Shown piece after piece: positions 5,571 through 38,833 of a DNA stretch of 38,833 nt. Origin of the DNA: Phoronis australis (Eukaryota > Animalia > Phoronida); assembly GCA_002633005.1 (NCBI GenBank), contig NMRA01000026.1:152395-191227 (forward strand), given 5' to 3'. Made by a program: the position numbers and the translations under genes. The first letter of the stretch is position 1. Every line of letters starts with the position of its first letter. The notes under the pieces were generated by a model. It was not told the origin of the DNA. It worked only from the letters and a program-made list of their open reading frames with translations, and did not search any database.

Positions 5571-8269
5571 TAGAAGTCAGAATCTCTTAGTTAACTTCCT
5601 TTTCGTTAACCCTTGCCCTTGCCATAAGCCTCCTTAGAATCTTCCACGAGATGGCTCTGTTGCACAATTTTTGCTTTGCAACGTAGCAAGTCTTCTAGCT
5701 TCAACTATGGAAGACATTTGATATACTCGTCAAACATAAACATGACTTTGACAACGAAACTATTCCGTCTTCAAAAAGACTTTTATTGTTTATTTGATTA
5801 CAGGTGCCAGTTAAGTGACAATGTAATTTTATACTTTTGCACGAGATGTTTCTGTCACGCGGCCGTACTGGAAAACTAAGTCTTTGACCCTTTTTGTGTA
5901 GTAGGCGAAGACCAAATAGAAAAAAGAAAAAACAAACGGATATTTAAAAAGAATTTATCGAAAAATTAAAACTGTATTGCGCCCCCTCAAATACAGTACG
6001 ATAACGTTTTACAATTTTCGGTCAAAATAGAATATTAACTTTCTGCAGGAAACAAGGGTGTACGAACTAAGAAGAAAGTGTAGAAGCTACGTTAATAGTG
6101 TACGGATTAGAAGAAAATAATAATACTCCTTCAGAGGACCATGTGAAAATTAATTGGAAGGTAAAAAATTGTTCTTCTTGAATGATACTGGGTGTGGTAA
6201 AAATAGAATGTGCTCCGGCGGTTACGGCACATGTATATTAATTGTGAACTCTAGTTTATTATCTCTGAGAAACTGTGATGTAGAAATTTAACTAAAAATC
6301 AACTATTCAATATAATTATAAACTGATTAGACATTGAGATAATTAAACTCGTCTTTGCCGTTACTCATATGTCTGTACCATCACCCAAAATTGTATCAGT
6401 AAAAATTATAAAAATTTAACGATAAAGACATATTAAAAGCCTCATCAATCAAAAATGGATTTCAAGTTTTTCATAGTGACATGTAATAAAAACGTAATAA
6501 ATAAGCATCCTCTTATGGTAAAAAATTAATTATTACCTATGCCATTGCATTCTTTGTATATTTAAGGTAACGGAGAAAAGAATAAGTGCGACGTGGGCAA
6601 TTTTGATATTTACCATTCAATAAAACAGAAAATGAAAAGTTTCTGCACAAGCAGACTGTACTTACATTCTGGTCTTTTCTTTGAACAGTGACCTGTGGTG
6701 CAAGTGCGACTGACTCGTAATTCAGAGAACAAGAAATGTTTAGGGTAGACATAACAAGCCATTTTTGAAAATTTTATTTAAAAAATAATAACATTCTCTT
6801 GATTGAAACGATACACTGTTTTGCAGTTTACTCTGTTACAACTAATTGTATTTCAAACTCTACTACTAAGTAACGGTAATGACATTAAAGACAGTGGACA
6901 AGGAAAATCCTTAGTACATAATTATATATTTTGACGACGAATGACAAATAAAATTCCAGACATACAGAGCGCTAGTTGGTACTTCAAAAACATATGCAGA
7001 ACATTTTACAGAGCTGGCCATGTCTTTACTGTTACTTGTCAATTCAGTCAACATTAGCGCCATACCACTGAAGCACTGCCGCTGCGTCAGTTTCTTGTTT
7101 CATGGAAAAAGTGTATCCATTCCGTGTCCTTACTTGTGATCTTTTAACCTTCAACTTACAAACTAAAATTGGCAGACCTCATTCAGACCACAGCCACAAA
7201 AACACAATAGTATTACAATGAAAATTGTTACTACGACATTCACGGCGACGACAACAACACAAAATCATAGTTACCTTTTTGTGTTCGCGCAGTTGGCGGG
7301 AGGGGTGGTGGGTGGGTGGGTGCTGTGGGTGGGGTTGCACATTTTCTCTCCTGCCCTAACCCTCACCTTTAAAAAGAACTACCCACACCTCAAATGGACA
7401 TGGCACGTTTTGCCGCTACAAAATCACCTCACTCCAGCCATTTACGTGAGCTTGAGCATTTCCTCAACGAAGGAAACCAAAGATAGACTTTGAGTGCAGT
7501 TGCAACGAATTCATGGAGACGGAAAGTGACATTTTCCCAATAATAAACCATCTTTACAATGAAACGATTTGTGAAGTGAATCTGCTTTACATCACGTCTT
7601 TGTGAAAACAGCACTACAATACAACGATTCATGACAAGTTTACTTGATCTTATTTACCCTCGGTCTCCGGCGGCAGCTGCTAAGGATTAGATTGTAACGT
7701 ACATGTAGGAAGCATAGTTCTCACAAAGCTTTGCCTGACAATACGAACATCGCTAGACTTTCTTCTCGTGTGAATAAAATGAAAAGTGTCACCTCAAAAT
7801 TGCAACACATGTCAACTGAAACGTTATTCAGTGTCATATTTTGGCTCTTTCCTGCACACCACAAAGGAATGCAATATTAGAAAATGAACGACAAAAATCA
7901 AACACTTCTCAGCAAAAGTCTGCCTTCATTACGCTGTTTTATTACAAAATGAAACACAAATCGCAGCCATGTCATTCCACCCCAGGAACGAAACAAACTA
8001 TGCCCGCATTCAGCTCGCGATGGCAAATTTAATTAGGAAAAATCGCATTACATGTTTTGTGCCTAACTCAGTGGCTCACACACGCATACATGTACACATC
8101 ATCGGAGTGACAAGCAAAGGCAGACTACAGGAAGAGAAATCCAGTAGAATATTCATTTGTTTCTAAAATCCAGAAAAGAACGGAAATGGCTGGTTCCACT
8201 TGTAGAGACTGTTTGACAAAGGTATGTAGGTAAGCCTTATACCTGCAGGGCCTGGTGCCTAATGGCAAA

Positions 8270-11790: not shown

Positions 11791-11989
11791 ACTCAGATGT
11801 GGTGCAGACGAAATCTACTCCTTCTGCTGACAGTCAGTGGTGTATTCATGGGCGTGGTGCTTGGGTTGTGTCTCCCATTGGTTGAACCGAGAAATGACGT
11901 GATCTTATTGGTTAGTTTTCCTGGGGAAATCTTCATGCGCGCACTTATGATGATCATGGTTCCGCTGATTGTCACTAGCGTTGTGTCAG
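11791..11989 (+). CDS. SLC1A: SLC1 coding exon 1 (TM1-TM2)
   Basis: ttatttcag acceptor; TQMWCRRNLLLLLTVSGVFMGVVLG..FPGEIFMRALMMIMVPLIVTSVVS; G|gtaag donor, phase 1; first ATG at 11797. Confidence 0.92.
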
Positions 11990-14900
11990 GTAAGAAAATT
12001 AGGAACTTTCAAGCAAGTCTGGCATGAAACAAATATTTTCCTCACATTTAAACGCGAACTGCTTGTTCGTGGATATCTGTCCTTAGGGTTAGATGACTTA
12101 GAATCGAGCAAATAATAGACGCGCTTACAATCAAAAATATTGACAAATAACTCATCATTGAGGTTATATATACATGTAAATGTGTTTCAAAATGCGTTTA
12201 CAATTACTTTTTCCAACACTTCAAACATTTTACTCCAAACTTTCGCAAAAACCGATTAAAGAGTTCCCACCATGACCCTGTGTCTCAAAAAGGAATTTTA
12301 TTATTACATCCTAACAGATTTAATAGCCTTTAGTACACCTGTTGCTACGAAACAATCTAAAAATTTTAAAAATATATATTTTCTGTTACCGAGTTTGTAC
12401 GCAATGGGTGGAAGACCGCCTCAGCCGTTGTTGTTTTACCAGTGCGATACTGTGGAGTTGTGAAGAAAGTCCGCGGGGAGCCGTCTTTTTCAGACATGAA
12501 AAGGTGCGTTTGTGGAAACTGTGGTAACAACAACTTGACTGTGAACGTCTTTGTGTTCAAATTTCCTAAATACGTGAAAGTTGCACAGAAATGGCATCGG
12601 TTTGTCATGGGCGGCGCACCATAGGGGCCTGGGGTAGGGCTATAGCCCCCCACTTTTTCAGGGCTAAGCCGCCCATGGTCTATAGGCGGTGCAACACAGG
12701 AGGGCTGGGGGGGGGAGTTTAGCCCCCACTTTTTCAGTGCTGCGCCACCCATGATTGTGCGCCGAACAAGAGTGTGGAGTGTCAGTGTGGAACATGAGAT
12801 TCAGTTTGGCGTAAGCCACACTTTGATCGGCACATTTCAAAGAATCGTGTTTCGACCACACACATAAGCGGCGTTACAATGAAGGACTCACCACCAAGTA
12901 AGTTTTGTAAATCACGAACAAACTGCTTCCATTCTAGGGCGAGTGATGCCAGGCCCTGGACCCCGGCCGAGATCGAGTGCTACTACAAGTAGGCTTATGC
13001 ATATTGTGTTTAGACTGTGCTCATTCCATCACGGCAATAGTGAATACGAGTAACCCAGGTTGGCTGTGGCCTTTGTCAGTAATTATTAAGTGTCTATTTT
13101 GTGAGTAGTGACCACCACTTGGTAGAGTTGGTTGTGGCTCACATATGTCATTTTTCGTGCAAGTGGGTCGAGTTCATACGGCCTGAAACCCGACGAAAGT
13201 TCGCTAAATGGGAAATCGAATTCATTGTCTGATTCTTCAAGTACTTGAGTATAAGTGCCCGTATCCACTCTCCTCTCTGTCTGCATAATCATTGTCCAAT
13301 TCTCGCCTAATATTGTCATTGTCTTCTGACCTGCAGATGATTGTCAAGCGGCCAACCGTCTTCCACCCATTGCATCATATGGCGGGAAACTTAGAAATAA
13401 GTCATTTTTCTTCAAAATTAAAAAAGTTGCCACTATTTGGCATAAAAAGTGCCTATTTAGCAAGATTTTATGGAATTCGATTCATATTAGCTAACTGAAA
13501 CCTGAAAAAGTAAGAAAATGCATGGTGGGAACTCTTTAATGGGAGACAATCTAAGAATTGTACTATGACACTTGGCTTACCTTGACATGTACCTGCAGCT
13601 TAATGGTTTGATTATCATGCACCTTCAGCAGAATTAATGGACAACATATTATTGCAACATAAAACAAATGCTTTAGGTAGTAAAAGTCTCCTTAATTGCA
13701 AAAGTTTCAAAATTCAAAAAACATAATCACTTGTGCTTCTCATGAACTATTCAAATATGCGAACTTTCAAAACTAAAATATAAAAATGCTACAGTTACAC
13801 CTATTGCGTTTGTTATGAGCTCATTATCTAGAGAACGATGACGTCATCAGCCCGAAGCAATTCAAGTAACACCAACAGCATGGTGTCTTTGATCTTAATC
13901 GGCAAATTACGTGGTGCCCAACACGGTTGCGCTGCCCAGTGTGGACCAGATAGGGCGTCAACGTAGGAATCTTAAGAGAAATTTTCCAGTATTGTATGTG
14001 AGCCAATACTGATACACTCAACCTAAATAGGACAAAAAGGCGTCACATGTCTTTGGACGATTGATACATATACCTCCTCAAAATCTAGGTCATGTTGCTA
14101 TGTGAAACCACGAGCAGGTAACCTAACTTGATATTCACCATTAGTTCTGTCGGGTTGGGTATCTACCCTAAGACTCACGTACAACACACTAGTGTTCGAC
14201 CAGATGGTAATTGATCTTATTCACAATTGCCATTTATATTGGAGTTTGGTGTTCTTCAATGGTAGCACTAAGCATCCGTATGGATTTAAGGCTTGGCAGG
14301 GCTTCAAAGTAGGAACTGTATGGTACCACAGGTCTCTGGTGACATTGCCAACACTCTCATATCAGACGACGAGTTGAATTCAGCGACAACAAGCTTATTG
14401 ATAGAAAGTTTTAGTACTTGGAGGTAGTTTGCTGTGTCTTTCTGACGAACTCATTTTTAACTCTGCACATGATCTCATACTTCTTATATCTAATAAACGC
14501 ATTTGTCATGTCATGTAAATGACCGTATACCGTAGATCACATTCCTTCCCGAGCAGATCTTCTATGTTGGTACATACGTTTCTCGAGAGGTTACTCAGTC
14601 TCTTCCACACAGAGTTGATGACGTCACCTCCCTGCAGTGGCTACAATGAACCACACCACCAATGTGATCTTCCTCTTCTTTGTTTTTACGGTGCACCAAA
14701 ATTATGTCAACTGTATAAATTGATTCATGTGTCACTCAGGTACTACCTGGTGACCTAACTGACCACAAATCGGTATTTCTGAAACATTTGAACAAACTAA
14801 TGAGTTTAGCGAAAAATGTTGAGATCTTGTGCAGCGACAAAACATTGACAGAGGGCCACAGGAGGCTATTTACATCCAAGTCGAACCTCTGCATGGAATG

Positions 14901-17900
14901 ACAGTGTTGGCAACGTATCCAGACAAAGAAGATCTCACGTGGCCGGAGTTCCCGCCACTAGTAGCAGTCAACATCATTCTAAGGAGACGTCTCCGAGTAT
15001 CCAAGGATAAGGTGCACGCGTAATCGAGATGAACTGGTACGAGTCGCAATAGTGTGCATCTCATTGATCGCTCAAGGACTACATTTATCACATTACAAGA
15101 TCTCTTGCTTTTTCTATCACTGCAGGAATATCTAAGTTCACGCCCGGCTCACTGGGAAAAATTGGTATTCGGGTGCTGGTCTACTACATATCGACAACAG
15201 TCATCGCCACTATACTGGGAATAGTATTGGCCTTGGCAACTCGACCCGGCAGTAAAAGCGAAAAACATGCTGAAATGGACGTCCATCTGATTGATTCTTC
15301 CAAGTCATTGGACGCCCTGGATGCTTTTCTGGACGCGATAAGGTAAGCTGATAACCAAAGATGCGGTACACGCCCGCCTCCCAATTCCCCCTCTGACCTC
15401 ACCCAGCTAACTCCCCCACAAAAGCGGGGTATAACATTGGACAGACCGTAGGGTAGAGGACACAGTTTATTCCTCCTTTGCAGCAGGAAATCCTCTGGGT
15501 GACGATTATGCCCGGACCCCTCCATGTTTCGTCGAATAATACCCTTATTTCATACCACATACGTCTTGATACGAACCGTGTCACCATTGTCACGTGACCA
15601 AAACTGAACTACTTTCTACGTCTGGAAGATCAAAGTTTCGACCAAATTAACCAGTATATAAGCTGAATAGATTACAAGAACTTACGTTTACTACAAGCTT
15701 GAAAAACTAAACAAACGCAATACACTGGAGAGCGTTTGATAATTAAAATCGCAACTTTTCCTCACAATAAACGAACATTGTTTGCCACTTGGCCTTCGTT
15801 GTCACTCCTCCCTCAAACTCGACTGTTCACGACAGCTTGTAAACAAAGACGGCGAAACTGATCATTGTAATCTTCACAGTGATAGCTACAAAAGCTTTCT
15901 GTTTTCATTATTTTGTGGTGTAAAACAACAAAATAACAGTAGTTATGTCCAATCAAACGCAATCAAAACCTTTTGTTCATATTAACACCTTATTGGTAAG
16001 TCAACAGGATTTGTCTGCCTTCAGTCCGGGACCGAAGCCAAAAACCAAGAAGCATCAAAGTACTTCAATTCGATATTACGAATGACCCTTGCTATTGAGT
16101 GAAACGAGGGTAAACTGAAAATTGGTGACAATTCTAATGGGGAGAGCTAGATTTGGAGGCGTTGTCAAAGTGTGAGGTAGCTATTGAAAGACATGGGGAC
16201 CAAGTTGACGAACTAGAAATCCAAAAATTCACGGAATTGAAAAAACGAAAACGCCAAGAAAAAAAACAATACGCGAGTTACATCAACAATTTTGAAACCT
16301 GGCTTTTCTGTGTCGTTGCATTCCTACGCGTATTGGCCAAAGAGGAAGAAATAAGACTCAGTGAAGTATTCGAAATGAGGATTAGATCTGAATATGTGGT
16401 ATACGGTTATTGCATCGTGTGAGTATTTTTACTCAACCTTTTGTTTCGTGAAAATACTCACACCCATATGAGAACACGCGTAGTTTAACACATATTTGCT
16501 AAGACAATCCCGGATTTCATGGAGTTCGACAAAACGAGATACTTGTCTACCGTCAAATTTATGGTTTTAATTTTACCGAGAATTGTATGGATGGTATTGT
16601 TTTGTGACCGAATAAGCCATGATCAGGGTGATTGAAATGTGTATAGTGGGGAATTGTTGAAGTAAATGAAACGAAGATATTAACTGATGGTAGAACAAGC
16701 CAAGATGCAGGTGTTGCAGGGGTAACCTGTGTTACAAACAACGGATGTAGTGTTGTTGATCGGAATCTCCTCTTTACATTGATCTAAGGGACCACGGTAT
16801 CAAGTGTAGACAAATTCATAATCACGATGTGAATGGAAAACGAATGTGAACAGTTGCGTATCGGAAATATTATCTGTTATTCATGTAAAAGGAAACGGGA
16901 ACAATGTTCAGTTCCCAATCACGTTAACTCTCGCGGGATCTTACTTTTATTTTCTACCGTAGTGTAACCAGTTCCGGCGGCGCACTTTACTGGAGTAAGT
17001 TGTATATGCTCTCTTGGGAAACTCTATGCTCCTTTAATTTAAAGGATACTAAACCCCGTTTAGGTGATTTCAACGAATTCTCATTCTGTAACCTGCTAAC
17101 ACATCTCTTAGGCCCCTCTTGGATATTGAAAGCAGGATTCGAGTAAAATTGCATTCTATCTGAGTAAAAAATTGTACATTAGGGCTAGTGGGTGGTCCTT
17201 CCCTACATTTGTCGTGTAACTCGTCTAAAGTGTAGGTATCGTGGGAAAGTCGTGTTCAATACCTGTTGATAATGAAATTCGGGTTCGGTATCCTTTTAAG
17301 ACAATATTTAATAAGAAATTTCTTTCCCTTCGTTTTTAATACTATTTGTCTTCTAAAGTTCAAAGTATGATTTTAACGATTGCTGTGTTCTCTGATCTGC
17401 ACTGTAGAAACTTAGTTCCGGAGAATTTGTTCGAAGCAAACTTTCGGAGCCAGAGGACAACCTACCAAGCAAAGTCACGAAAGCAGAAAGACGATATTGG
17501 CCGACTCGTTATATCCAATAGTTCTGTGGAGAACAGGACGGAAGAAAAAGTTCGAAAGTTGGAATATCAAAATGGGACTAATACTCTCGGTAATTAGTAC
17601 AGGAACATGGTTTTCGTTCCATAATCCTGATTGCTTGCAAAACACTTGCGTTGAGAAATCTTCATATTTGGAAAGAAAACAGGGAGTAGATAATTCCTGC
17701 CAATATACATCTCCAAATATCATTTATGTGTATTACAAGGGCACCATTGTGATTCATCTTTATGCGGCACAAGGTGGCGTACTATCGCAGACAATGTTTG
17801 TGCTCAAGGATTTAACGTTTTAGGAGTGGCATTTTGCCAAGTGTTCTGTAGTACGTTCGGTCGCCTGTCACTTACCTCGTGTATGCGCTATTTTTCCAAA

Positions 17901-20900
17901 CTCGCAAGGTACATGTAATTGCTTTACGGAACGCAAGCCAGACGACTTTGCAAGACTGAAAGCGGTCTTCTGGAAAACATCTTTGAGTTGTATTAAAAAA
18001 AATTCAAGTCCTACCAGTCGCCTTGGCTTTGGTTTTATCTCCATTTTTATCAACTGAAAGCAGTTTCGTGGAAAACATTTTAATGAACTTTTGGTGAATC
18101 TTTGAGTTTTAATTAAAACGATTCAAGTCTTACCAGTCGCCTTGGCTTTGGTTTTATCCCCATTTTTATCAAATAGCTGACCAAAATTTCAAATATATTA
18201 ATGGTCCTTGAAAGCTGCTCAGTTCGTTCTATTAGTGATAACCCATGGTCGAAATTCCAGACTTTATATTTTTGTGCAATCTGAGTCTGGTGTAGGTCTC
18301 TGACGTCTGATTCTTGATTTGTCAATCAATGATAAGATCAGCCTGTTAATCAGCTTTCAAACATATCTTTCTCTTGTGTAGCAGTCAACGTAAACATGGT
18401 CCAGTTCTTAACTGAATAGTCAAAGTCATCAGCTGAACTCCCATGTAAAGATCGGCCACTGTTGTCACGTGACTGACCTATTTTTAATGGAAATCCATGA
18501 GTGCCATTTTCGAGATTCATGGATAGCCACCCCCAATAAAATCGGGAATCTTTTGAAGTAAGGAGGACTTTGAGATCGATTTTATGAAGGCCTAATTCCA
18601 TTTGGGCATGCTACCCTGCAACTTTAAAACAGTTGAAATGAGAGTCATGACGTCACTTGAGGCATAATACAGATGTTCACCCTGCAATGGAAGCTGTGAT
18701 TATGCCCACTGCCTGCGTACCATTCGAGGTCGAAACAAACAAGTAACCCACCCTCATTAGAAAAGCGGGCCGTTCATTGGTGTCTCGTAAGAATTTAATT
18801 AGACAATTCTTCTCTACATCATATTGTGTTGTATAGAGCAATTACGGTATTAGTGATGTCCTCAGGTAATAAAATAGCGAAATTTCAGGGACTGAAACTG
18901 GTACTTTTCCAAAGTGCGGACAGACGTTTCGCTTTGATCGACCAGAGCATCACCAGTGAGGGTGACACTGTCAAACAATATGGTTTATAGTTTTTACTCG
19001 TATTGTTTCATTGATTGTGCCTGGCTCACTGGTGGTTACCAAACTATGCAAAATGCTTTGCCGTCCACGTGCACTGTGGTTCATACTGACTATGGGCGTA
19101 ACCATCGGAGGTGGTGTCCTTTCAATATGGAAAGAACGGATAAAACTTTTACGATTCAATTCATTAACATATCGTAGAGTGAACACATGACAGACGTTTC
19201 TCTTTGTTCCGTCAGCATAATCAACGAGGGTGAAACAAGGCCAAACAATTTGGTTAATAAGGTTTAATAACCATATTGTTGTGTTTAATGGTTTAGTGGT
19301 GGCAACAGAACAAAGCTAATGGTGAACTGTACACGTGCACTATCGCTCGTACTGATTATGAAGGTGGTGCCGTTTCGATACGGAAAAACGACTACAATTG
19401 TGATGATTCAATTTACTATCGGACTGTAGTGTGAATACATCTCAGGCATTTCGCTTTGTTCCGTCACTTAATCAAAGTGGGTGACACGCAGCCAAACAAT
19501 TTGTTTTTTAGTTTTTAAACATACTGTTTCATTTGCAAAGCTCACTGATGAAGGTTACGGAAAACCGAAACATTGTATTGTTTGTATGCATTATTGTTTA
19601 TCCTGACAAAGGGTGTAACCTTCGATGGTGGTTCCATTTCTGACAATGATGCTTTCGTTATTTGCAGGTATCTTATCCTTTACAATAGTTATTAGCATAA
19701 TCATGATCAAAATGAAAACGAGACCGGAAACGACGATAAAATTTTTTTGCGAGATGAACGATGTTATCATGAAGTTGGTCCATCTGATTATGTGGTAAGT
19801 GGATTGTCAGAATATAGTCTGACAGTATTTTAGTTGTATTGTTTTGTTTTGTTATTCTGTTTGATTGGCATGACTCCTGAGTTAAGTACAGTGATGATGT
19901 AATTTGTTTACTACAAAATAGCGTGAAACTTTCTAGAAGACTGAAGTCAGAACAGTGATGATGTAATTTGTTTACTATAGTATAGTGTGGAACTTTCTAG
20001 AAGACTCTTGCATGACAGTGATTAATGCAGTCTGGAATATTCTAGAGACTTACTAGTACATGTTTGTAGAATGATTGGTGGGTCCCAGAAAGTTCTAGAA
20101 TGTGCTTGAATTGATGAAAAGTTCCAGAACAATGCATTAGGCTATAAATACACAAGCACGGGTTTGTGTTAGGCACTTGAGTCCAAGAAGATTAAGTCAG
20201 TGAGATCAAGTCAGTTCAAGTAAGTCAATCAGGAGAACTACAGTTGAGTTGCAGTGAAGAGAGTCAGCAGTTACAGCGATAGTCAATAGAGAGCCAGCTA
20301 TAGAGACAGCAGGTTATTGAATAGACAAGTGTAACAGTTGCTGAACGTGTCTCAGAAGTTCATCACAAGTCAAGGCTTCGCAGTACTGGCTGGAGCATAA
20401 AAAGACATTACGTCGGACGTTTTGTTCGAGTAGGCTTGTGAACGTATGGTCGGGATTAATAAAGGATTAACTCGAACCAGTCTTCAGTCAATCTTCGCAG
20501 CGAAAGCTATTAGCACCGGTCTGTAACAACCTGCGCCCACCCACACACGGGGAAAAACGTGACATGGATTGGTTGTGTTCATACTGCATCTGATCTCAGA
20601 TGCCCCAAAATTATTTCTGCGGATGTGCAAAGATTACACCAGTTTTCATAGAACTCTATCATTACCAAATTAAATGGGGCGCAACCCGCTGGCGGATAAT
20701 TTAGTAGAAATTATCTTTTCTATTCACATTTATTTCCCAAACTATATAAGAAGGCCAGTCTGGGTTAGAACGCCGCATGTCTTTCCTTTACAAAACAATA
20801 AACAATAAACGTATCAGTAACGACAACGTAAAAATAACTTGACCGAGAAAGTGGGATGGGGGAAGGACGTTAGCACAACTTCCGTGCACTCACACTCAAG

Positions 20901-23900
20901 CCGTGTTTATTTGGTAGTAAAAGAGTTTAACAAGTAAACCGTTTATATACATTGAAAATATAGATATAGATACATGCACACTCATTTATCAAATAAACCG
21001 ATATTAGAACTTTTGTGTAAGAGCCCTATATACTAAATATCTACATCTATCTCTTGGACAAAGACGCCATCTGTTGACGGGTTACTTCAGTCTTCTTCGA
21101 TTTCGGTCGCAAAGCATTAAGAATTTTTGGTCGATAACTAGATAACTCTCTTTGACAAAGACGCCATCTGTTGAGCTATCACCTATACATGACAGTATTT
21201 CTTGAATATTTTGTGCAAATTTTTGCCGGATCGACTAAACACCCGTACAAGTGCTCAAAGCGTCTAAAGAAGAACGTGTATGATACCAAGCCTGTTCATC
21301 TTCTGAGTGATCCCGTCGGAGACATGGCTTTCCCAATGAATTTTCAAAAATTGGAATGCGTTATTGTGAAATATATTGTATTGCAGAAGGCTACAATTTT
21401 GACATATGAATTGATTGATATCCGCTTCATTCGCCTGCATGTATGATAATTTTTAAATTTTATTTTCATATTAATGGAATGCCACATTATTTTCACTATA
21501 GGTTTTCTCCCGTGGGCATAATGTCGTTGATAGCAGGGAAATTGATGACAGTTTCTGACCTAGCAACCGTTTCTAGGCAACTTGCCATCTTTACGGCAAC
21601 TACTACCGGAGGCGTCATCACCCATGCTCTCGTGATCTACAGCGCCCTCTACGTCGTGTTCACTCGGAAGAATCCTATTTTGTTTTTTCGAGGAATGAGC
21701 CAAGCTTGTTTGACGGCATTTGCATTAAGTTCCAGGTAATTTGAAAGGGACCCCAAAGTTGCAAGATGCGCCTTATCAAAGGCCAATAATCGTTGCGGTC
21801 AAACTGAAATGAAACATGTTTCCGATTAAGTTCCTGATCACGGATGTACATGTAGCTCAGTCAACGTTTACATTTATAAGTATCAAATTTCCCTCGAAAC
21901 TGTACGGAAAACAATAAAAAATTTTTGCTTACAGCTCTTGTTGTTGCTATGTTGACGTCACCGTTGTTCAGCGTCTGATTCACCGCAGATCTGCTTTCGT
22001 AATCCACCCTGGAGGGTAATGAATTTCTAAAACCGCTCTAAGGTGGTGGCGCGTTACAACTATTATTAAAATCTCTACGGTCTATTTACACCGACCTTTT
22101 GTCTATTTACATTGTCACAACGTTTCTGTCGGTCTATTCTTCGGCCATCTTCAGGTGTTCCTGCGTTCTTAGAAGAAAGAGCACGAATATGTGGTACGTG
22201 GTATGATTTTTGATGATATATTGTCCGAGGAAGGATTTGAACCCACGACTTCTGAAACTACAGATACATTTGAATCCAGCACCTTAACCACTACACCATG
22301 GAGTCATCCAAATCCTTCCTCGTACAATATATAATAAAAAATCACACCATGATGAGTGTACCACATATCCGTGCTCGTTCTTCTAAGTGCGCAGGAACAC
22401 CTGACGATCGCCGGAGAATAGACCGACAGAAACGTTGTGACAATGTAAATAGACAAAAGGTCGGTGTAAATAGACCAAGAGATTTTAATAATAGTTGTAA
22501 CCCTGGAGGTATTCGTCAGTGTTTTTAGGGTGTTGCAACTGGAAACATAAGAGAGAGGACTCGAAAAGAGGGACATGTGTTGTGTTTTGTTGCAGTAACA
22601 TCACCGTGAATTTTGAACCATAAAAACGGGATGCCACTCTCAACCATGAGGTCATCGTTTCCATCGAATTAAAGTTTTCAAAATATAAGTAATGTTGAAA
22701 AATCTTCGGTATTAATTATGGAGTGTTGAAGTCGACAACAATTTTTTGTATGATTTTTGTCAGTAACTGAACTGTTTGTAAGGATTTTGTTCCGAAAAGA
22801 CATCCTTTTGCACAGAAGGCAACTGGTCGTTTAAGTCGCTTATCTGAGCGGCACGTCCTTAATGTATATCTTCGAATTCATCAGAGTATCCTACGAGCTT
22901 CTTACATTGAAAAGGTTACATGTGTCGATGATGTAACTCGCTGTGCTATGTTGTCCCATGATGGTTACATGCTACTTGTCGGAATATTAACATTTTACAC
23001 GTAAATTATGTTAGGAGGTGTGATATACAATGTAAATAGCCAAAAGTTCACAAAACTTCGCCAAAAATGTTGCGAAAGTGAATTTCTAAATGGGTAAAGT
23101 ATGTTTCAAATTGGAAGAAATTACAGTTATGTGGATTTTGTGGTTTGAGGAAAGAATGAAAGTGTTTTGCCTAATTGAATCTTTCTGTTTCTAGTACGCC
23201 CACCATCCCCGCCACGCTGGAGTGTCTTGAGGACAACCTCGGTATAGACCGCAGAGTGACCAGATTCACAGTCCTTATTGGCGCCACTGTGAATATGGAC
23301 GCAACAGCTCTTAACACGGCAGTCTCGACCCTGTTTATTGCACAACTTCACGATATTTCACTGGACGCCGGACAAATTGTCACCATATGGTAAGGAAACA
23401 AGTTCACCAAAGCCTGAGATTAGAAGACTACAAAATTGACCAATAGCGTGACATGGTCTAGTATCACAACAATTTTTATTTTGCATACAGGCAAATACAC
23501 ATCAAAAAGCACAGGAGTGTGTCATTTGGATTTGCCAACGTCCTAAATTACGTGTTGATGTTCACTTTTGTTAATTTTCATTAATTTTTCATTTCATTGT
23601 TTCGTTAAGACTTTTAATTTCTATTGATAACTTTAAGTTTGAAATTTCAAAAAGCGATCTTCAACCGCCCGCCATTTCGTCGATTTTTCTTTCACAAGAC
23701 AGAACACGTCTCCTTATTTGGTATGGCAAGATAGACGTATGAACTGATATGGGAAATGTGGCCTTTGACCTCAAGAGAGGTTAAGAAGCTGACTGTGAGT
23801 TTAAGCTGTATTTATCTTAAGTGGGAGGCTCGTTGGTTCCCTGCGTGCCGCTAGGTGGTGCTGCCTAGGCACGAAGGGAACCAGTGAGAAGTGGGAGGGA

Positions 23901-24803
23901 GATTAAAAACTCTGAGGTCACAACAGAGTTTTTTCTTCGCGCGAATTTCAAAATCTTGAATTTTATGAATTTTTCGGGAAATTTTCTCACAGGGGAAAGT
24001 GAATTACTCTGCACTAAACGTTGCGAGACGGTACTTTCGTTAGGAATTGTTTAAACATATTTTGACGAGCTTTCGTTTTCCATGCCTTTTTAAAAGTATA
24101 CTTATCCCCGTTTTGATGATTTCAATCAATCCTCTTTCTGTCACCCTCTAATACATCATTGGCAAAAAGCAGGAATCTCATAGTTACACCATATCTCACG
24201 GAGATTATACCATCCTTGGTGGGTGATCTTTTTTCACAGTTGCCGTACGTAATTTGCGAAAAGCGTAGGTCACGGGTTGCCGTTTAGCAGTTTCCGGCAC
24301 ATCCGGCAATAATTCATAATCGGGGAAGCGTGGTAGTGTTCTTAAATCCCATAGCACTTCGGTTAAAACTGCACAGTTACAGCTTAAGTTTGGAGAAATG
24401 CAGCACAGACTATTTCATAATAAACGTTCGCTCGAACTCCCAGAATAGTCGCCGGATATCCAGACTAAGACAAGAGGAGATAGTGAAACTATATTTCGAT
24501 ACGTCACATCTTCACTAACACTCGAGGTGCCTAGTCATGTGACCCGTTGTTATTAGTTTTAACGATGTTTCGATTTATTTCGGCCTGAAGATGAGATATT
24601 ACCAGCCTCGAAATGTAGACGTTTTTTAATTAGAGCAATAGACAACACTGCCGTGCATTAATCAAATTCTGCGTACAAGAGGGGGCGCTGCCTGTTTTAA
24701 TAATGTTTAGACAAGCACCCAATTCTTTGTCACAGCATATAGTTGAAAGCAGTATATACATATACATGTACATGTACATGTATATGTATATATGTATATG
24801 TAT

Positions 24804-24837
<34 letters not shown>

Positions 24838-26103
24838 GATACATGAATGTGTGTGCGCGCGTGCGCACTTTTGTGTGTGTATGTGTGCGTGTGTACGTGC
24901 GTGTGCATGGTCGTGGGCATGAGCGTGTAAGTAAAGCTCGATTTGGGGCGAGCGAGTGCGTGTCGTGCCATAGCACTTGCGATCCATTTTTCACAGGAGC
25001 TCGCAGTCCGGGAGTATTTCTTTTAAGTAATTTTTAAGTGTTACATTTCATTTCAAGTCTTTCTTTGTTATTATAGCATGTAGATTCACCGCTCATTTCG
25101 TTTTTTCACAGCGTTACTTCAGTCCTCGCCAGCATTGGTGCTGCCGCCGTGCCGGGCTCAGGCATCGTGATGCTAATCATGGTTTTGGAATCGGCAGGAT
25201 TTCCAGTAGAAAATGTCAGCTTGCTTTTAACAGTGGACTGGTTAACGTAAGTAGTCACTGGAGTTTTGCTTGTACCTTGCTCTACCACATGTTTGTGTAT
25301 ATTTAGTTTTTGGCACTTGTTAACTGGTTTACTATACATGTGATCTGGTATTGGAGAATGATAGGCGGAGTTTGAGATGACCATTTTTACTTTTCATCTC
25401 AGGAAGAACACCACCGGGGGCCGCGGCACGGGTATTAGTTGGTGTGTTGACTAAAAATTTGATACATGTAAAGCAATATCTAGCAGTGGCGGATCTAGGA
25501 TACCATAAGGGGGGGGGCAACATCCGAAGATGACGTCAGCAAAGCGTGCTTGTGTTTGCAGCAGAGACCCGAAAGTTGCGGGCACCGGTCTTGTTACCCT
25601 TCTGTTCAGAAAATCTGCTGTTGGACTAAAAGAAAAAAAAAAAGGGAACGCCACGGTCCCGGTTCTGAGCCCCCGGTTCTGAGCCCACCCCCTTTCTCCG
25701 CTACCGGTCCTGGTTACTCACTCAGCATCTCAGCATTTCCTTAAGCTTTGCGCTGTTGCTGTTCCACTTTTCTTGCGGAAGCCAAGGGGGGGGGGCTGCC
25801 CCCCTTAAATCCGCCTATGCCTAGCAACACTTGAAGACAATATCTTAGATTGGGAATTGTCGTTCTAAACATGCATACGCCAACCAATGTGAAAACATGA
25901 TAACTTCATTTTGTGGTTTCAGGGGACGATTTCGAACCGTAACCAACATTCTTGGCGACAGCTTCGGTGCTGCCATCGTTGCTCACCTTTGCCGCCACGA
26001 CCTTGTGCAAACGGAAGAAAGAGCAGACGACAAAGAAGAGCAACTAGTACCTCTGACCGACATGCACCTGAACAACACAGCCGAGGCACACGAAGTTGTT
26101 TGA
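11797..26103 (+). CDS. SLC1A: SLC1-family (excitatory amino acid/dicarboxylate:cation symporter, EAAT-like) transporter, 8 coding exons: 11797-11989, 15126-15342, 17408-17589, 19668-19794, 21502-21735, 23195-23389, 25112-25246, 25923-26103 (1464 nt, 487 aa)
   Basis: Manual splicing gives a continuous ORF with family motifs FPGEIFMR..PLIVTS, YYISTT, NLVPENL, N(T)LGIL, WFSPVGI, SSS (HP1), GATVNMDAT (TM7), ASIGAAAVPGSG (HP2), VDWLTGRFRTVTNILGDSFG (TM8). The symbol denotes the family only; the orthologue is not assignable. The start codon is tentative because an AG acceptor at 11789-11790 implies an upstream exon. Confidence 0.93.
12260..13535 (+). mobile_element. Non-autonomous Kolobok DNA transposon
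   Basis: Perfect 15-bp TIR AGAGTTCCCACCATG, TTAA on both sides; THAP remnant MKRCVCGNC..FKFP..W (from 12496) and ATL*SAHFKESCF (12815-12856); convergent acidic ORF with PYELDP, resembling the KolX PYxFEP motif. Confidence 0.85.
12606..12753. mobile_element. Nested GC-rich MITE (dimer of two units of about 70 bp) interrupting the THAP remnant
   Basis: Termini CATGGGCGGCGCA...TGCGCCACCCATG; repeated TAGCCCCC(C)ACTTTTTCAG; no clear TSD. Confidence 0.7.
14190..14910 (+). mobile_element. Highly degenerate Penelope-like element remnant (RT and GIY-YIG fragments)
   Basis: Colinear decayed motifs: FFNG, Q..CM.PQVSGDIAN..E (like QxxGxxMGSPxSxxxAN), TVYRR (like TVYRK), LYKL..YYL (like VYKI..YIG), NVEIL and RG.QEAIYI (like RGxKEAIYI). 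Confidence 0.55.
15126..15342 (+). CDS. SLC1A: SLC1 coding exon 2 (TM3)
   Basis: ctgcag acceptor; GISKFTPGSLGKIGIRVLVYYISTTVIATILGIVLALATRPG..DAFLDAIR; AG|gtaag donor; not in the ORF track. Confidence 0.92.
17043..17294. mobile_element. TTAA-flanked MITE (Kolobok-like)
   Basis: TTAA|AGGATACTAAACCCCG ... CGGGTTCGGTATCCT|TTTAA. Confidence 0.7.
17408..17589 (+). CDS. SLC1A: SLC1 coding exon 3 (TM4a-b, extracellular loop)
   Basis: ctgtag acceptor; NLVPENLFEANF..NGTNTLG with N-glycosylation sequons NSS, NRT, NGT; G|gtaat donor. Confidence 0.9.
17980..18172. repeat. Local direct duplication (about 74 bp shared, period about 120 bp)
   Basis: ATTCAAGTCYTACCAGTCGCCTTGGCTTTGGTTTTATCYCCATTTTTATCAA occurs twice. 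Confidence 0.85.
18920..19640. repeat. Three diverged tandem units of about 250-270 bp containing hammerhead-like cores
   Basis: Units start at about 18920, 19190 and 19443 with CAGACGTTTC(G/T)CTTTG..GGGTGA..CAAACAAT; shared ACGTGCACT, GGTGGT and GATTCAATT blocks. Confidence 0.75.
19668..19794 (+). CDS. SLC1A: SLC1 coding exon 4 (TM4c-TM5)
   Basis: tttgcag acceptor; GILSFTIVISIIMIKMKTRPETTIKFFCEMNDVIMKLVHLIMW; TG|gtaagt donor. Confidence 0.9.
19805..20564 (+). mobile_element. Solo LTR (760 bp)
   Basis: TGTCA...TGACA termini, exact 5-bp TSD TGGAT (19800-19804 and 20565-20569), TATAAATA 20143-20150, AATAAA 20458-20463, 64-bp-period U3 duplication 19888-20006. Confidence 0.88.
21502..21735 (+). 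CDS. SLC1A: SLC1 coding exon 5 (TM5-TM6-HP1)
   Basis: ctatag acceptor; FSPVGIMSLIAGK..RKNPILFFRGMSQACLTAFALSS; AG|gtaat donor. Confidence 0.93.
22053..22305 (-). mobile_element. tRNA-derived SINE with a hammerhead-like 3' body
   Basis: Minus strand GACTCCA-TGGTGTAGTGG (A box, 22288-22298), GGTTCAAATCC (B box, 22233-22243) with long-variable-arm spacing, then CAC-CTGAAGA..GAAACGTT-GTG (22116-22157). Confidence 0.72.
22116..22157 (-). ncRNA. Candidate minimal type I hammerhead ribozyme (second copy)
   Basis: CAC-CUGAAGA-UGGCCGA-AGAAUAGA-CCGACA-GAAA-CG-UU-GUG. Confidence 0.5.
22309..22501 (+). mobile_element. Inverted 5'-truncated copy of the same SINE
   Basis: Reverse complement of about 22053-22239, starting inside the B box (CAAATCC). 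Confidence 0.8.
22398..22439 (+). ncRNA. Candidate minimal type I hammerhead ribozyme
   Basis: CAC-CUGACGA-UCGCCGG-AGAAUAGA-CCGACA-GAAA-CG-UU-GUG: intact CUGANGA and GAAA core, 3-bp stem I, palindromic AACGUU in place of stem III, imperfect stem II. Confidence 0.55.
23195..23389 (+). CDS. SLC1A: SLC1 coding exon 6 (HP1b-TM7)
   Basis: tttctag acceptor; [51 protein letters not shown]; TG|gtaag donor. Confidence 0.93.
23829..23888. mobile_element. 60-bp palindromic micro-MITE with a 10-bp TSD
   Basis: CTCGTTGGTTCCCTGCGTGCC...GGCACGAAGGGAACCAGTGAG (18/21 pairing), flanked by exact AAGTGGGAGG on both sides. Confidence 0.8.
24581..24621 (+). ncRNA. Degenerate minimal hammerhead-like motif
   Basis: CGGC-CUGAAGA-U-GAG..CUC-GAAA-UG-UA-GACG. 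Confidence 0.35.
24753..24906. repeat. Compound (TA)n/(TG)n microsatellite
   Basis: Read directly from the sequence. Confidence 0.95.
25112..25246 (+). CDS. SLC1A: SLC1 coding exon 7 (HP2-TM8a)
   Basis: ttcacag acceptor; VTSVLASIGAAAVPGSGIVMLIMVLESAGFPVENVSLLLTVDWL; AC|gtaag donor. Confidence 0.93.
25484..25819. mobile_element. GC-rich MITE
   Basis: Termini CAGTGGCGGATCTA...TAAATCCGCCTATG with poly-G subterminal tracts; a related terminus lies at about 10640-10654. Confidence 0.7.
25923..26103 (+). CDS. SLC1A: SLC1 terminal coding exon 8 (TM8b, C-tail)
   Basis: tttcag acceptor; GRFRTVTNILGDSFGAAIVAHL..AHEVV, then TGA. Confidence 0.93.
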
Positions 26104-26320
26104 TTGAAAAAAAAACATTAATGTAATTCTTCCAGGCGTAACGCAGTTCGAGCACCAGTTTTGTCTACTAAATAGCAGCCATCCAATTGGAATAAGAAAG
26201 AGTAGTGTATATACAAGAATAATGAGTGGCTCAGTGTGCAATTTCTGAAATAAGATTCAAGAAATGCGAAGTTTACCATAAGACTTCAAAGATTTAGAAT
26301 GTGTCGGGAACAAAAGTATT

Positions 26321-26381
26321 TATATATATATATATATATATATTAGATACATGAATGTGTGTGTGCGCGCGTGCTCACTTT

Positions 26382-26412
<31 letters not shown>

Positions 26413-26652
26413 GTTTGTGTGCTGCCATCGTGGCTCCCCTTTGCCGCCACGACCTTGCGCAAACGGAAGAAAGAGCAGAAGACAAACAAGAGCAACTAGT
26501 ACCTCTGACCGACTTGTACCCGAACAGCAGAACCGAGGCACAAGAAGTTGTTTGATTGAAAAAAAAAAACTTTAATGTATTAATGTAATTCTTCCAAGCG
26601 TAACGCAGTTCGAGCACCAGTTTTGTCTACTAAATAGCAGCCATCCAATTGG
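26321..26652 (+). pseudogene. Chimeric partial duplicate of the SLC1 3' end (intron-6 microsatellite fused to the last 135 coding nt plus 3'UTR)
   Basis: 26421-26555 matches 25969-26103 with 12 substitutions; 26321-26420 matches the (TA)n-ttagatacatgaat-(GT)n block at about 24815-24900; exon 7, the exon 8 acceptor and the RFRT motif are missing. Confidence 0.85.
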
Positions 26653-26756
26653 TTCTCAAAATCTACATGTAGGATTTCTGTAATCGACTATTGCATACAT
26701 TTCTATGGTTGGTCACCTTTCCCGCTACGGTTTCGCGAGAGGAATAAGAAAGAGTA

Positions 26757-27438
26757 GGTGTTAGAATGTTTCGGGATCAAAAGTATATATTTCCACTTAA
26801 TCGAATGCATTTATAAAAGCCAAGCCACGACCTGACGAGGGAATCGCAGATCAACGTCACTGATTCACCCACGTGGTGGAGAGAGTGTATAATTGTTCTG
26901 ATAATTTTACTTGTGACACGACGTTTAAATGGTTACAGATAAGGGTAATCCATACAAATGCGGCAACAAATGTATTTCTTGCCAAAATTGGTGTCAAGCG
27001 ACTCAGTTCTCTGTACATTTTCTAAAAAATACCCGGAAATGCGAAGTTTACTATAAGACTTCAAAGGTGTTAGAATGTTTCGGGAACAAAACTATATATT
27101 TCCACTTAATCGAATGCATTTATAAAAGCCAAGCCATGACTTGACGACGGAATCGCAGATCAAAGTTACTGATTCACCCACTTGGTGCAGAGAAAATATA
27201 CTTGTTCCCATAATTTTACTTGTGACACGATGTTTAAATGGCTACAGATAAGGGTAATCCATACAATTGTGGCAACAAATGAATTTCTTGTCAAAACTGG
27301 TGTCAAGCGTCTCAGTTCTCTGTAAATTGGTGTCAAGCGACTCAGTTCTCTGTAAATTGGTGTCAAGCGACTCAGTTCTCTGTAAATTGGTGTCAAGCGA
27401 CTCAGTTCTCTAAACATTTTCTAAAAAAGACCCGGAAA
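26757..27438. repeat. 309-bp tandem duplication with an internal 30-bp x4 minisatellite in the second unit (27295-27411)
   Basis: Units start GGTGTTAGAATGTTTCGGGA at 26757 and 27066; the 30-mer AATTGGTGTCAAGCGACTCAGTTCTCTGTA is present once in unit 1 and four times in unit 2. Confidence 0.92.
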
Positions 27439-32894: not shown

Positions 32895-33840
32895 GTACAT
32901 GTACGTACACTACACAGGGGTACGTACACTACATTTCAATCACTTGTCAAGTTTATAAAAAAAACTTAGAATCTACAGAGAGTTAGTTCACTTACCAAAT
33001 CTATTCAATGAGAACGAACAAAAAGTACAGCAAAAAGTGTATATCTGTCTGTCATTCTTTGAAAACAGGCACATGTTAAAATATAGGGGTACGTACACTA
33101 CACAAATGCTAATATTTCACTCAAAACAAATGCATTCGTAATTAACACCCTTATAACCTAGCATTTTTAATGAAGGAATCTGTCTGTGTTTCATGGTATT
33201 TGTTCACATCGGGGAACGGACACCTCACAGGGGTAGGTACACTACATTTCAACGACATGTCAGATTTGTAACTAAATACTAAGAATCAACTGAGAGTTAG
33301 TTGATTTACTAAATGAATTCAAAGAGAAAAAATAAAAAGCACAGCATTCATGTGTATATTTGCCATACTTTTAAAATAGGCACAAATTAAAATACACTAC
33401 ACAAAAGCTAATATTTCACTCAAAACAAATGTATTTATAATAAACACCCTTTTTACCTAACATTTTTAAGGAAGGAAACTGTCTGTGACCAATGTTGATC
33501 ACTTACCAAGTGATATTTTAATTTCATGGCATTTGTAAACAAGGGGGTACATACACTACAAAAGGGGGTACGTACCCTCTACATGTACATCACTGTTTCC
33601 GCATCACATGGTAACATAATGTTATATGGCCATTTTACACTACAAAAGGGGGTACGTACACTCTACATGTACATCGCTGTTCCCGCATCACATGGTAACA
33701 TACATGTAATGTTGTGTGGCCATTTTATTTTTCTTTGGTGATAATAAGCACCATGTCGTTATTTAAAAGGCAAAAATTTCATTCGCAATGACCATTTGTG
33801 TTATTGCATTCCACATGGGGGTACGTACACTACATTTTGG
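32895..33840. repeat. Complex repeat built on GGGGTACGTACACT(A)C, with a duplication of about 313 bp (32917/33230) and one of about 83 bp (33554/33637)
   Basis: About eight same-orientation copies of the motif; may be the subterminal region of a DNA transposon. Confidence 0.75.
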
Positions 33841-36739: not shown

Positions 36740-36998
36740 NNNNNNNNNNNNNNNNNNNNNNNNNNNNNNNNNNNNNNNNNNNNNNNNNNNNNNNNNNNNN
36801 NNNNNNNNNNNNNNNNNNNNNNNNNNNNNNNNNNNNNNNNNNNNNNNNNNNNNNNNNNNNNNNNNNNNNNNNNNNNNNNNNNNNNNNNNNNNNNNNNNNN
36901 NNNNNNNNNNNNNNNNNNNNNNNNNNNNNNNNNNNNNNNNNNNNNNNNNNNNNNNNNNNNNNNNNNNNNNNNNNNNNNNNNNNNNNNNNNNNNNNNNN
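36740..36998. other. Assembly gap (N run)
   Basis: Run of n. Confidence 1.
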
Positions 36999-38066
36999 GT
37001 CACATTTCTTGATAATGAAGACTTGTTGATTGACAGGTATATTAAACACGAATAATTTTGAGAACTTCTATTTTGTAAATGGATTCTTTGGAGTGAGCAG
37101 TGAATAAATGTCCTAAAATGGACAAAAAGATCTCTAAGACATTGGCTGAATTGAAAAAAGTTGAGGTGAAAACACAGGCGTAACTTGAGAATGGAAGTTC
37201 TGTTTTCCTTCTCGGTTGCTTCAGTACGGACAATGGTACAACTTGTTAGCATATAAAATTAGTGAGGTAGAACGCGTTATCAAAATTTGTGCAGCAGCGA
37301 CTACCATTGCCGTAATAAGACGGAAGTTTAAGAAATAAAATTTTGGAGGAACAACCCGACCTGTGTTCCTTCTGCAAGCTAGAATCTCAACCTTAGAACT
37401 TTCCGTTGAAAATCTTTGTGCTCGCGAGTGCTACCCAAATTTCTAAAAGCGAAAGTTTACTTTTTGTGGAAACATCTGCAGAAACAGAATATAAAGTTTT
37501 AATTTCATTTGTTCAACAAATTTTCTGAAAAGTAGTAACATGGAAGAACATAACAAAGCATGGGAAATTATTCCTACGTCTCATGTGACGATCACACAGA
37601 CCATTTTTCAGCGTGCTTGAATATTTTTCGATTTTTACTTTATCGCATACGAATAAAAAGAAATGAAGAGAAACAGCGTACACTTCGCAGATAGACCTCA
37701 ACGCTAAATGAAATGCTAGGATTGAGCGATTATTAATTGATATCATGTCAAACTTGATTTTGCAAGCGCAAAACAGTCACATCAGAAAATCGTTTTTATG
37801 CAACCGTTGTCTACAGACATTATCAAATATTTTTTTTACAAAAAGAAATTCATAATACTGTAAACGCGCTTATGTTAGACGAATTTCAAAATTCCCAGAG
37901 TCCCTCAAATCACCGAGCAATCATCTTCCTACAAAACCAATGTTCTCGGAAAAATTTCCAAACAAAATTCATTAGTGAAACGATTGTTTTCTAAACACTA
38001 AATGCGCAACAACGCACCAAAATGTACAAACTGAGACATACATGAAACGTCAAAAGAATAGCAGCG

Positions 38067-38279: not shown

Positions 38280-38833
38280 TTATTCCTCCAAGTACTGAAA
38301 TGTCTTCACCACACCTGTATAACACTCCACTACAGACACCTGACCCGGGGCCGGGAGACATAAACCAGTTGGAAACTGGACACCACCAGGGGGCACGATC
38401 ACGTGTGCACGTGCGTTGTTGTATAAAATCACCTGATTATTGTCAAAGTCTGCCACCAGAATGTGACCGTGTGGGTCTACACACACACCTTGCGGCCCGT
38501 TACTCAGTTGATGGGTCAGTGTGGATACAACGGCCGGCCGTGTCGGGTCTATTACATGGACACGACCGGGGTTAAACTCGCTGACCACCAACTGACCACA
38601 GTTGTCCATACACACATATTGTGGTCTGAACTCACTCAGCCCCAGGGTGGGGCCGTCCAACTGTTGGTGAATATTACAGTTAAGATCCGTTATAAGTACC
38701 CGTCCCCCGTCTTCATCACACACAACCAGTCTGTCACCGTGACATGTCACAAAGCCCCAGCCTTTATACACATCACGACACACCTTCACCACCTCACCAC
38801 GGCCATCATACCTGACAACACCCTTAATGCCCC
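38280..38833 (-). CDS. NHL-repeat beta-propeller protein (TRIM-NHL-like C-terminus), 5'-partial
   Basis: Frame is open to the window end (GIKGVVRYDGRGEVVKV...); NHL-type repeats FRPQYVCMDNCGQLVVSE, GPQGVCVDPHGHILVADFDNNQV, FPTGLCL; stop TAA at 38280-38282. Confidence 0.85.
   Translation of the reverse strand, partial: GIKGVVRYDGRGEVVKVCRDVYKGWGFVTCHGDRLVVCDEDGGRVLITDLNCNIHQQLDGPTLGLSEFRPQYVCMDNCGQLVVSEFNPGRVHVIDPTRPAVVSTLTHQLSNGPQGVCVDPHGHILVADFDNNQVILYNNARAHVIVPPGGVQFPTGLCLPAPGQVSVVECYTGVVKTFQYLEE

Follow-up and report, generated by a model that had tools for sequence, protein, structure and literature searches.

A Phoronis australis SLC1 paralogue with glycine at the amino-group-binding aspartate of TM8 and a retained carboxylate-binding arginine

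The window analysed here, a 38,833-nucleotide stretch of Phoronis australis DNA, holds an intact, expressed and fast-diverged animal SLC1 paralogue in which the TM8 aspartate that corresponds to EAAT3 D444 (GltPh D394) is replaced by glycine while R447 is kept. The Tyr-Glu pair Y373-E374 is lost as well, and the residues that bind Na+ and the two carboxylates of the substrate are intact. Judged by its residues, this is an SLC1 member that matches none of the patterns of the EAATs, bacterial DctA, the mosquito dicarboxylate transporters and the ASCTs. Most likely, although we hold this tentatively and at slightly less than an even chance, the protein would carry non-amino dicarboxylates in a Na+-dependent manner, uncoupled from K+ and H+, its substrate and coupling being predicted from the mutagenesis of other family members.

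The gene occupies positions 11797-26103 of the forward strand and consists of eight exons that encode 487 residues (Table 1), with canonical GT-AG introns and a joined frame that is open throughout. The first-pass annotation had placed the gene at 23195-26103 and described its ORF as free of lesions; the gene is real and its eight-exon model has no stop or frameshift, but that span covers only exons 6-8. Membership in the SLC1 (DAACS) family is seen in the HP1, NMD, HP2 and TM8 motifs and in the PF00375 profile, which is matched by five of the seven scanned frames (three above the curated cut-off; the two without a match are the downstream fragment and a frame within an intron). An AG lies immediately 5' of the exon-1 ATG, so that an upstream exon and a longer amino terminus are possible and the 5' end is uncertain. 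Exon 5 has the same size as the '234 exon' named for slc1a2/slc1a9 in the available text of PMC2873418, and the TM8 intron is in phase 2, splitting an ACG (Thr) codon. High-copy interspersed repeats, whose summed contig depth runs into the thousands, occupy intronic positions 12202-13707, 19732-20735, 21740-22743, 23246-24249 and 25254-25755, and a short repeat element near 25484-25523 is common to 12753. Other features of the window are local tandem duplications of about 260-370 bases (26756-27328, 18919-19528 and 32903-33487), an assembly gap at about 36740-37000 (the whole window has 260 N), and an NHL-repeat coding stretch on the reverse strand (38283-38831; PF01436, E 1.2e-9) that runs off the window end.

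Table 1. Features of the Phoronis SLC1 gene and of the adjoining duplicate (positions in the window)
Feature	Position	Strand	Remarks
Exon 1	11797-11989	+	TM1-TM2; RNA reads at 11913
Exon 2	15126-15342	+	TM3; Na3 residues Y98, T101, T102 intact
Exon 3	17408-17589	+	TM4 and extracellular loop
Exon 4	19668-19794	+	TM4c-TM5; a donor 3 nt upstream likewise keeps the frame open
Exon 5	21502-21735	+	234 nt; TM5-TM6-HP1a
Exon 6	23195-23389	+	HP1b, TM7, start of HP2a
Leu at TM7a proline	23274-23276	+	Equivalent of EAAT1 P392
NMD motif	23292-23303	+	N366, M367, D368 intact, then Ala replacing G369
Asn-Thr replacing Y373-E374	23313-23318	+	Proton/potassium coupling motif lost; Y and E in 27/27 reference rows
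Exon 7	25112-25246	+	HP2 and start of TM8, including D440; GTAAGT donor after 25246
Exon 8	25923-26103	+	TM8, carboxy-terminal tail, stop codon; RNA cover; pyrimidine tract and CAG upstream
Gly codon GGA	25924-25926	+	EAAT3 D444 / GltPh D394 position; next to the split Thr codon
R447 and T448	25933-25938	+	Both kept
Rearranged duplicate fragment	26321-26652	+	Intron-6 copy (24813-24905, 93%), then copy of exon 8 3' part and UTR (25967-26190, 90%)

The residue register was fixed by matching exons 7 and 8 to chains of solved EAAT2 and EAAT3 structures. For EAAT2 (chain 7xr4), the last complete residue of exon 7 aligns with 473 and the second residue of exon 8 with 476, which makes the Gly EAAT2 residue 475; in the 526-residue EAAT3 chains the flanking matches are 444 and 447, so that the Gly is chain residue 446, which equals native residue 444 if the construct has two extra amino-terminal residues, as we assume from its length. 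The Asp is kept in 156 of 159 TM8 stretches (157 retrieved proteins, a set biased to fish EAAT3 and SLC1A9), the motif being D-R-T in 155, D-C-T in one (ASCT1), H-R-T in two and G-R-T in one, which is bacterial. Two Asn that appeared at alignment column 444 came from gene models without TM8 and were dropped. There are only two AG sites in 25860-25965, and none of the four open in-frame donor/acceptor pairs near the TM8 intron gives Asp at the codon. In DNA run X1, one contig is identical to the window over 25835-25959 and spans the Gly codon, but X1 is possibly the assembly's own sample and this contig is therefore not independent support. A second X1 contig has 11 differences over 25871-25959 (89 bases), none of them listed at 25924-25926, and the listed changes at 25927 and 25929 are synonymous in the Arg codon. 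The structural register, the splice options and the second, diverged copy all agree with the first-pass reading of a TM8 Asp-to-Gly replacement beside a retained Arg. An assembly error or a wrong splice call might be suspected, since the Gly codon falls within a four-G run after the acceptor and the exon 7/8 junction is not directly listed among the reads; we consider it highly improbable, because Illumina contigs of two different copies have no listed change at the codon, RNA depth starts at the acceptor, no other in-frame splice yields Asp, and Y373 and E374, which lie mid-exon, are lost too.

Expression of the gene is low. RNA runs X5 and X6, which come from other samples and were each read to about 18-19% (12 and 9 reads placed), cover exon 8 at depth 2-10 on a single strand, consistent with sense transcription. 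Depth is zero in the intron bins before bin 25915-25930, and the summed X6 depth of that bin, 30, agrees arithmetically with three reads from 25923 and one from 25925; six of the nine X6 reads are at least 99% alike. The first-pass annotation had looked to RNA for the exon 7/8 junction, and the outcome is mixed: exon 8 is covered in sense, but the junction is listed neither as a joint nor as a loose end in the whole-gene or the local read mapping, so that we infer the joint itself. The whole-gene mapping, crowded by intronic repeats, gave no exon joints among the 15 listed of 280. In run X7 no read falls on the coding part, all seven of its reads lying past the stop. The reads show expression of the window's version and of a diverged one, the two being either alleles or paralogues. 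In exon 3, 25 of 31 X5 reads and 14 of 14 X6 reads differ from the window by two letters at 17440-17441 (Asn to Thr), and depth there is above that of the other exons, perhaps from a more highly expressed paralogue.

A residue-by-residue comparison with EAAT3 covers the 27 pocket and ion-site residues tabulated in the available part of PMC3958442, of which 23 are identical in the Phoronis protein. The four changes are D444G, Y373N, E374T and G410A, G410 being variable in the family; further substitutions are G369A, A335P and T418M. The Na+-site residues Y98, T101, T102, N366, D368 and D455 are intact, as are the carboxylate residues S333 and N451 (alpha) and T370, G415 and R447 (distal), and T448 is also kept. 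Roles of D394/D444, R397/R447 and N401/N451 are confirmed in the parts of PMC12668577 and PMC12036983 that were available. The first-pass survey was right about the Na+ sites and R447 but missed Y373N and E374T. According to the available text of PMC10160106, K+ binds to D444 and T448 where the amino group would otherwise sit, E374 is both the proton carrier and the residue that zips HP2, and mutating E374, Y373 or R447 abolishes K+ coupling, so that the losses fall on one set of residues, that for the amine, K+ and H+. Side chains of this set are changed in three of four cases versus one of the 23 others (Fisher p=0.005), and the probability of at most one change among 23 at the background rate is 0.011, the grouping behind both values having been chosen after the data were seen. 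The background itself amounts to 31 of 123 conserved columns changed, and the transport core is not enriched in changes (19/68 versus 12/55, p=0.53). By these comparisons, the residue losses are more focused than background change.

These features suggest how the protein may work. With the Na1, Na3 and NMD residues intact, Na+ would still prime the pocket, and with both carboxylate grips intact the ligand would be one with two acid groups 4-5 carbons apart. With Gly444, the pocket would lack the negative charge by which the amino group is held and succinate excluded, and the T448 hydroxyl and backbone carbonyls could, speculatively, bind a 2-hydroxy or 2-oxo group. The loss of D444, which binds K+, together with Y373 and E374, which couple K+ and H+, would leave Na+-only symport or Na+-dependent exchange. 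Malate, 2-oxoglutarate or similar compounds are likely candidate substrates, of either a symporter or an exchanger.

The dicarboxylate reading draws in part on published work on relatives. In EAAT3, neutral Ser, Cys or Ala at 444 allows succinate to bind, although it is not moved (D444A IC50 870 uM), D444G not being among the mutants mentioned in the available text of PMC2151622. Moreover, dicarboxylates are the preferred substrates of an animal SLC1 from the mosquito Culex, CuqDCT, with Km values of 10.5 uM for malate, 20 uM for 2-oxoglutarate, 51 uM for succinate and 1085 uM for glutamate; it carries D444N and T448A, has no K+ response, and its change is dated to a recent mosquito ancestor (PMC3737229, in the portions available). 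An animal SLC1 can thus become a dicarboxylate carrier and lose the K+ response. The identity of 23 of the 27 sites, with losses focused on the amine, K+ and H+ set, also favours this reading, as do two observations described below, the synonymous TM8 differences among copies and a bacterial Gly/Arg/Thr clade that lies beside glycolysis or hydroxyacid-dehydrogenase genes. Several points tell against it. T448 is kept, whereas in EAAT3 D444S or D444N alone supports neither amino acid nor dicarboxylate transport and T448A is also needed, D444S/T448A carrying succinate (same portions of PMC3737229); Gly has no hydrogen-bond donor, unlike the Asn of CuqDCT or the Ser of DctA; changes are not enriched in the core, no orthologue was found that would date the Gly as old, and the bacterial clade keeps Tyr and Gln in TM7b. 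The convergent switch to non-amino substrates that the first-pass annotation had proposed is, by residues, still the best guess, but CuqDCT was published in 2013 and an animal SLC1 dicarboxylate carrier would not be a first. The literature search, with most subscription papers outside its scope, found no animal SLC1 lacking D444 besides the mosquito pair.

The retention of T448 also bears on an alternative in which the protein is transport-dead or very slow, binds Na+ and an acidic ligand, and serves as a sensor or anion channel. When residue 444 of EAAT3 is neutral and T448 is in place, substrates bind as non-transported blockers (PMC2151622, in part), and the loss of E374 takes away the side chain by which HP2 is zipped (PMC10160106, in part), the replacing Thr being shorter than the archaeal Gln. 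The equivalent of S103 is kept, although other chloride-path positions are mixed in sign, and the Leu at the EAAT1 P392 position recalls P392A/V, which raise anion conductance; that effect is slight, however, with transport intact, and P392L is still substrate-responsive (PMC10702391 and PMC8970671, available parts). As the bacterial Gly/Thr clade suggests that such a pocket can have a metabolic role, we regard a channel or sensor as unlikely, though with an appreciable chance.

A further alternative holds that the ligands are still of the amino type, the protein being a low-affinity, Na+-dependent exchanger of Asp and Glu, or one for N-substituted aspartates that fill the cavity left by the Asp. 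Backbone carbonyl positions 331 and 411, which bind the amino group in EAAT3, are kept along with T448; CuqDCT still carries Glu, with a Km of about 1 mM (PMC3737229); and mutants of the YE pair lock EAATs in exchange mode (PMC3958442), both sources as available in part. However, replacing D444 of EAAT3 by any residue abolished transport currents (PMC10160106, in the available text, citing earlier work), and the idea of N-substituted aspartates is speculation, so that we think amino-type ligands distinctly unlikely.

A quick tree of 37 rows places the Phoronis protein inside a 25-row animal EAAT/ASCT clade (SH-aLRT 99) without fixing its position there, and its branch is long (1.29; ASCT1 1.51). 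This grouping and the introns mark it as an animal SLC1. DctA-like rows (of which L082 and L083 have a label inferred from their TM8 Ser/Arg pattern) and bacterial Gly-type rows lie far from it; the tree gives no descent from the DctA clade, and on the tree and the introns we reject horizontal transfer from the bacterial Gly clade. The best identity among retrieved proteins is 44% over >380 aligned residues. No orthologue emerged with exon 6 among longer proteins (20 matches, best 58%) or 50%-cluster representatives (best 68% among 150 listed of 1921), with exon 8 among eight candidates, among metagenome contigs (five loci, best 58%), or with an alignment query among 120 listed of 7900, nearly all from fish; this is a weak negative, as matches beyond those listed may include close relatives. 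Two metagenome proteins, P0129 and P0170, are long-branch SLC1s of eukaryote type with His at D444, the YE pair kept and Val at T364.

Within residues 429-455 the differences between copies are synonymous in five of five codons, and in the tail in one of ten (nine change the residue). This contrast has a P of about 0.001 under neutrality (Fisher 0.002), with counts that are small, come from differences filtered by the read tool, mix alleles or paralogues, and leave out the downstream duplicate as non-coding; it is suggestive of a TM8 constrained with the Gly in place. The duplicate itself has a His-to-Pro change at residue 449, and many of its differences match expressed X5 reads, so that a full sister copy probably exists elsewhere. 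The gene could instead be a young or relaxed duplicate in decay, the Gly being one of many tolerated losses, and the long branch, the 31 changed columns spread without core enrichment, the low expression, the adjoining broken duplicate and the empty orthologue searches would all fit. Yet eight exons are free of stops and frameshifts although identity with the closest protein retrieved is only about 44%, residues for Na+ and the carboxylates have changed less than the background rate would predict, and the TM8 differences among copies are synonymous; decay is accordingly a reading to which we give only a small chance.

The pocket predicted for a dicarboxylate carrier has a bacterial counterpart. 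The bacterial match P0016 has Gly at 444 with Arg and Thr kept, and of 179 genome loci 80 were retained, comprising 68 with Gly, 10 more distant ones with Asp and two truncated. Position 448 is Thr in 67 of the Gly loci and Ser in one; they are Bacteroidota by title, save one bin labelled Bacillus, and span 59-100% identity to the representative. With Gly, Arg and Thr or Ser conserved across the 68 loci, this is a pocket that selection maintains, here in a fermentation-type setting. In the example L001, the neighbours are a type II GAPDH, a class I aldolase and PFK, all above the cut-off, and a D-lactate-dehydrogenase-like protein below it. GAPDH, aldolase, PFK or a 2-hydroxyacid dehydrogenase lies within 6 kb of 67 of the 68 Gly loci and of none of the 10 Asp loci, but most Gly loci belong to one near-identical island (91-100%) and amount to roughly one observation rather than independent ones. 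The transporter gene of L001 lies at 6001-7344, and the island, which includes a D-2-hydroxyacid dehydrogenase gene, is near-identical across many genera as if mobile. Other neighbours are what we take to be NADH-dehydrogenase-like, universal-stress-protein-like and ATP-cone-like genes. The literature search found nothing on this clade or its substrate, and its proteins, which are easy to express, would allow the same pocket to be tested.

Two rules from EAAT mutagenesis are that loss of D444 needs a change at T448 and that E374 or Gln is needed for closure of the HP2 gate. The Phoronis protein departs from both, yet none of the listed Na+ and carboxylate contacts is missing. Should it transport, it would reveal other changes that enable this combination and offer a eukaryotic scaffold in which the coupling of Na+ stands apart from that of K+ and H+; should it not, it is a candidate for a natural SLC1 that serves only as a channel, or as a sensor. 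At its broadest, the proposal would be that transport of non-amino acids arose a second time, independently, among animal SLC1s through a third chemical solution (Gly444 with Thr448), in which recognition of the amino group, K+ and H+ was shed together to give a Na+-only hydroxy/oxo-dicarboxylate carrier whose pocket is convergent with that of the Bacteroidota clade. We consider this wider scenario possible but on balance doubtful.

Among known systems, EAAT1-5 share with the Phoronis protein the fold family, the phase-2 TM8 intron and about 39-44% identity, EAAT2/SLC1A9 and EAAT3 being the nearest retrieved. It has the EAAT carboxylate ligands R447, T370, S333 and N451 and the Na1, Na3 and NMD residues, but differs from EAAT1-5 by D444G, Y373N, E374T, G369A, P392L (EAAT1 numbering), A335P and T418M. 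Bacterial DctA likewise has no Asp at 444 and has Arg at 447, but it combines Ser444 with Ala448 (PMC3737229, in part), where the Phoronis protein has Thr, and it branches separately in the tree; in addition, the DctA-like loci L082-L085 carry Asn at the Na1 residue D455, unlike the Phoronis protein. The label 'DctA-like' given in the first-pass annotation is therefore right by half, as the Asp is lost and R447 kept, whereas DctA and CuqDCT change both D444 and T448. The P0016 clade (L001-L069) shares Gly444, Arg447, Thr448, NMD and D455, but has about 29% identity, stands on a separate branch, mostly has Glu at D440, and keeps the Tyr with Gln at E374. The ASCTs resemble the Phoronis protein in the loss of the YE motif and in a similar divergence from the EAAT consensus (29 of 123 columns in ASCT1 versus 31); they keep D444 and lose R447 and T370, however, and are thus its mirror image. 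Closest in kind are CuqDCT and AeaDCT, animal SLC1s derived from EAATs in which D444 is neutralised and D440, R447, N451 and D455 are kept; the K+ response is lost in CuqDCT and predicted to be lost in the Phoronis protein. In place of the mosquito pair of changes, D444N with T448A, the Phoronis protein has Gly and Thr, and it also lacks Y373 and E374. The function of CuqDCT has been measured, and the Phoronis protein is known here from its sequence.
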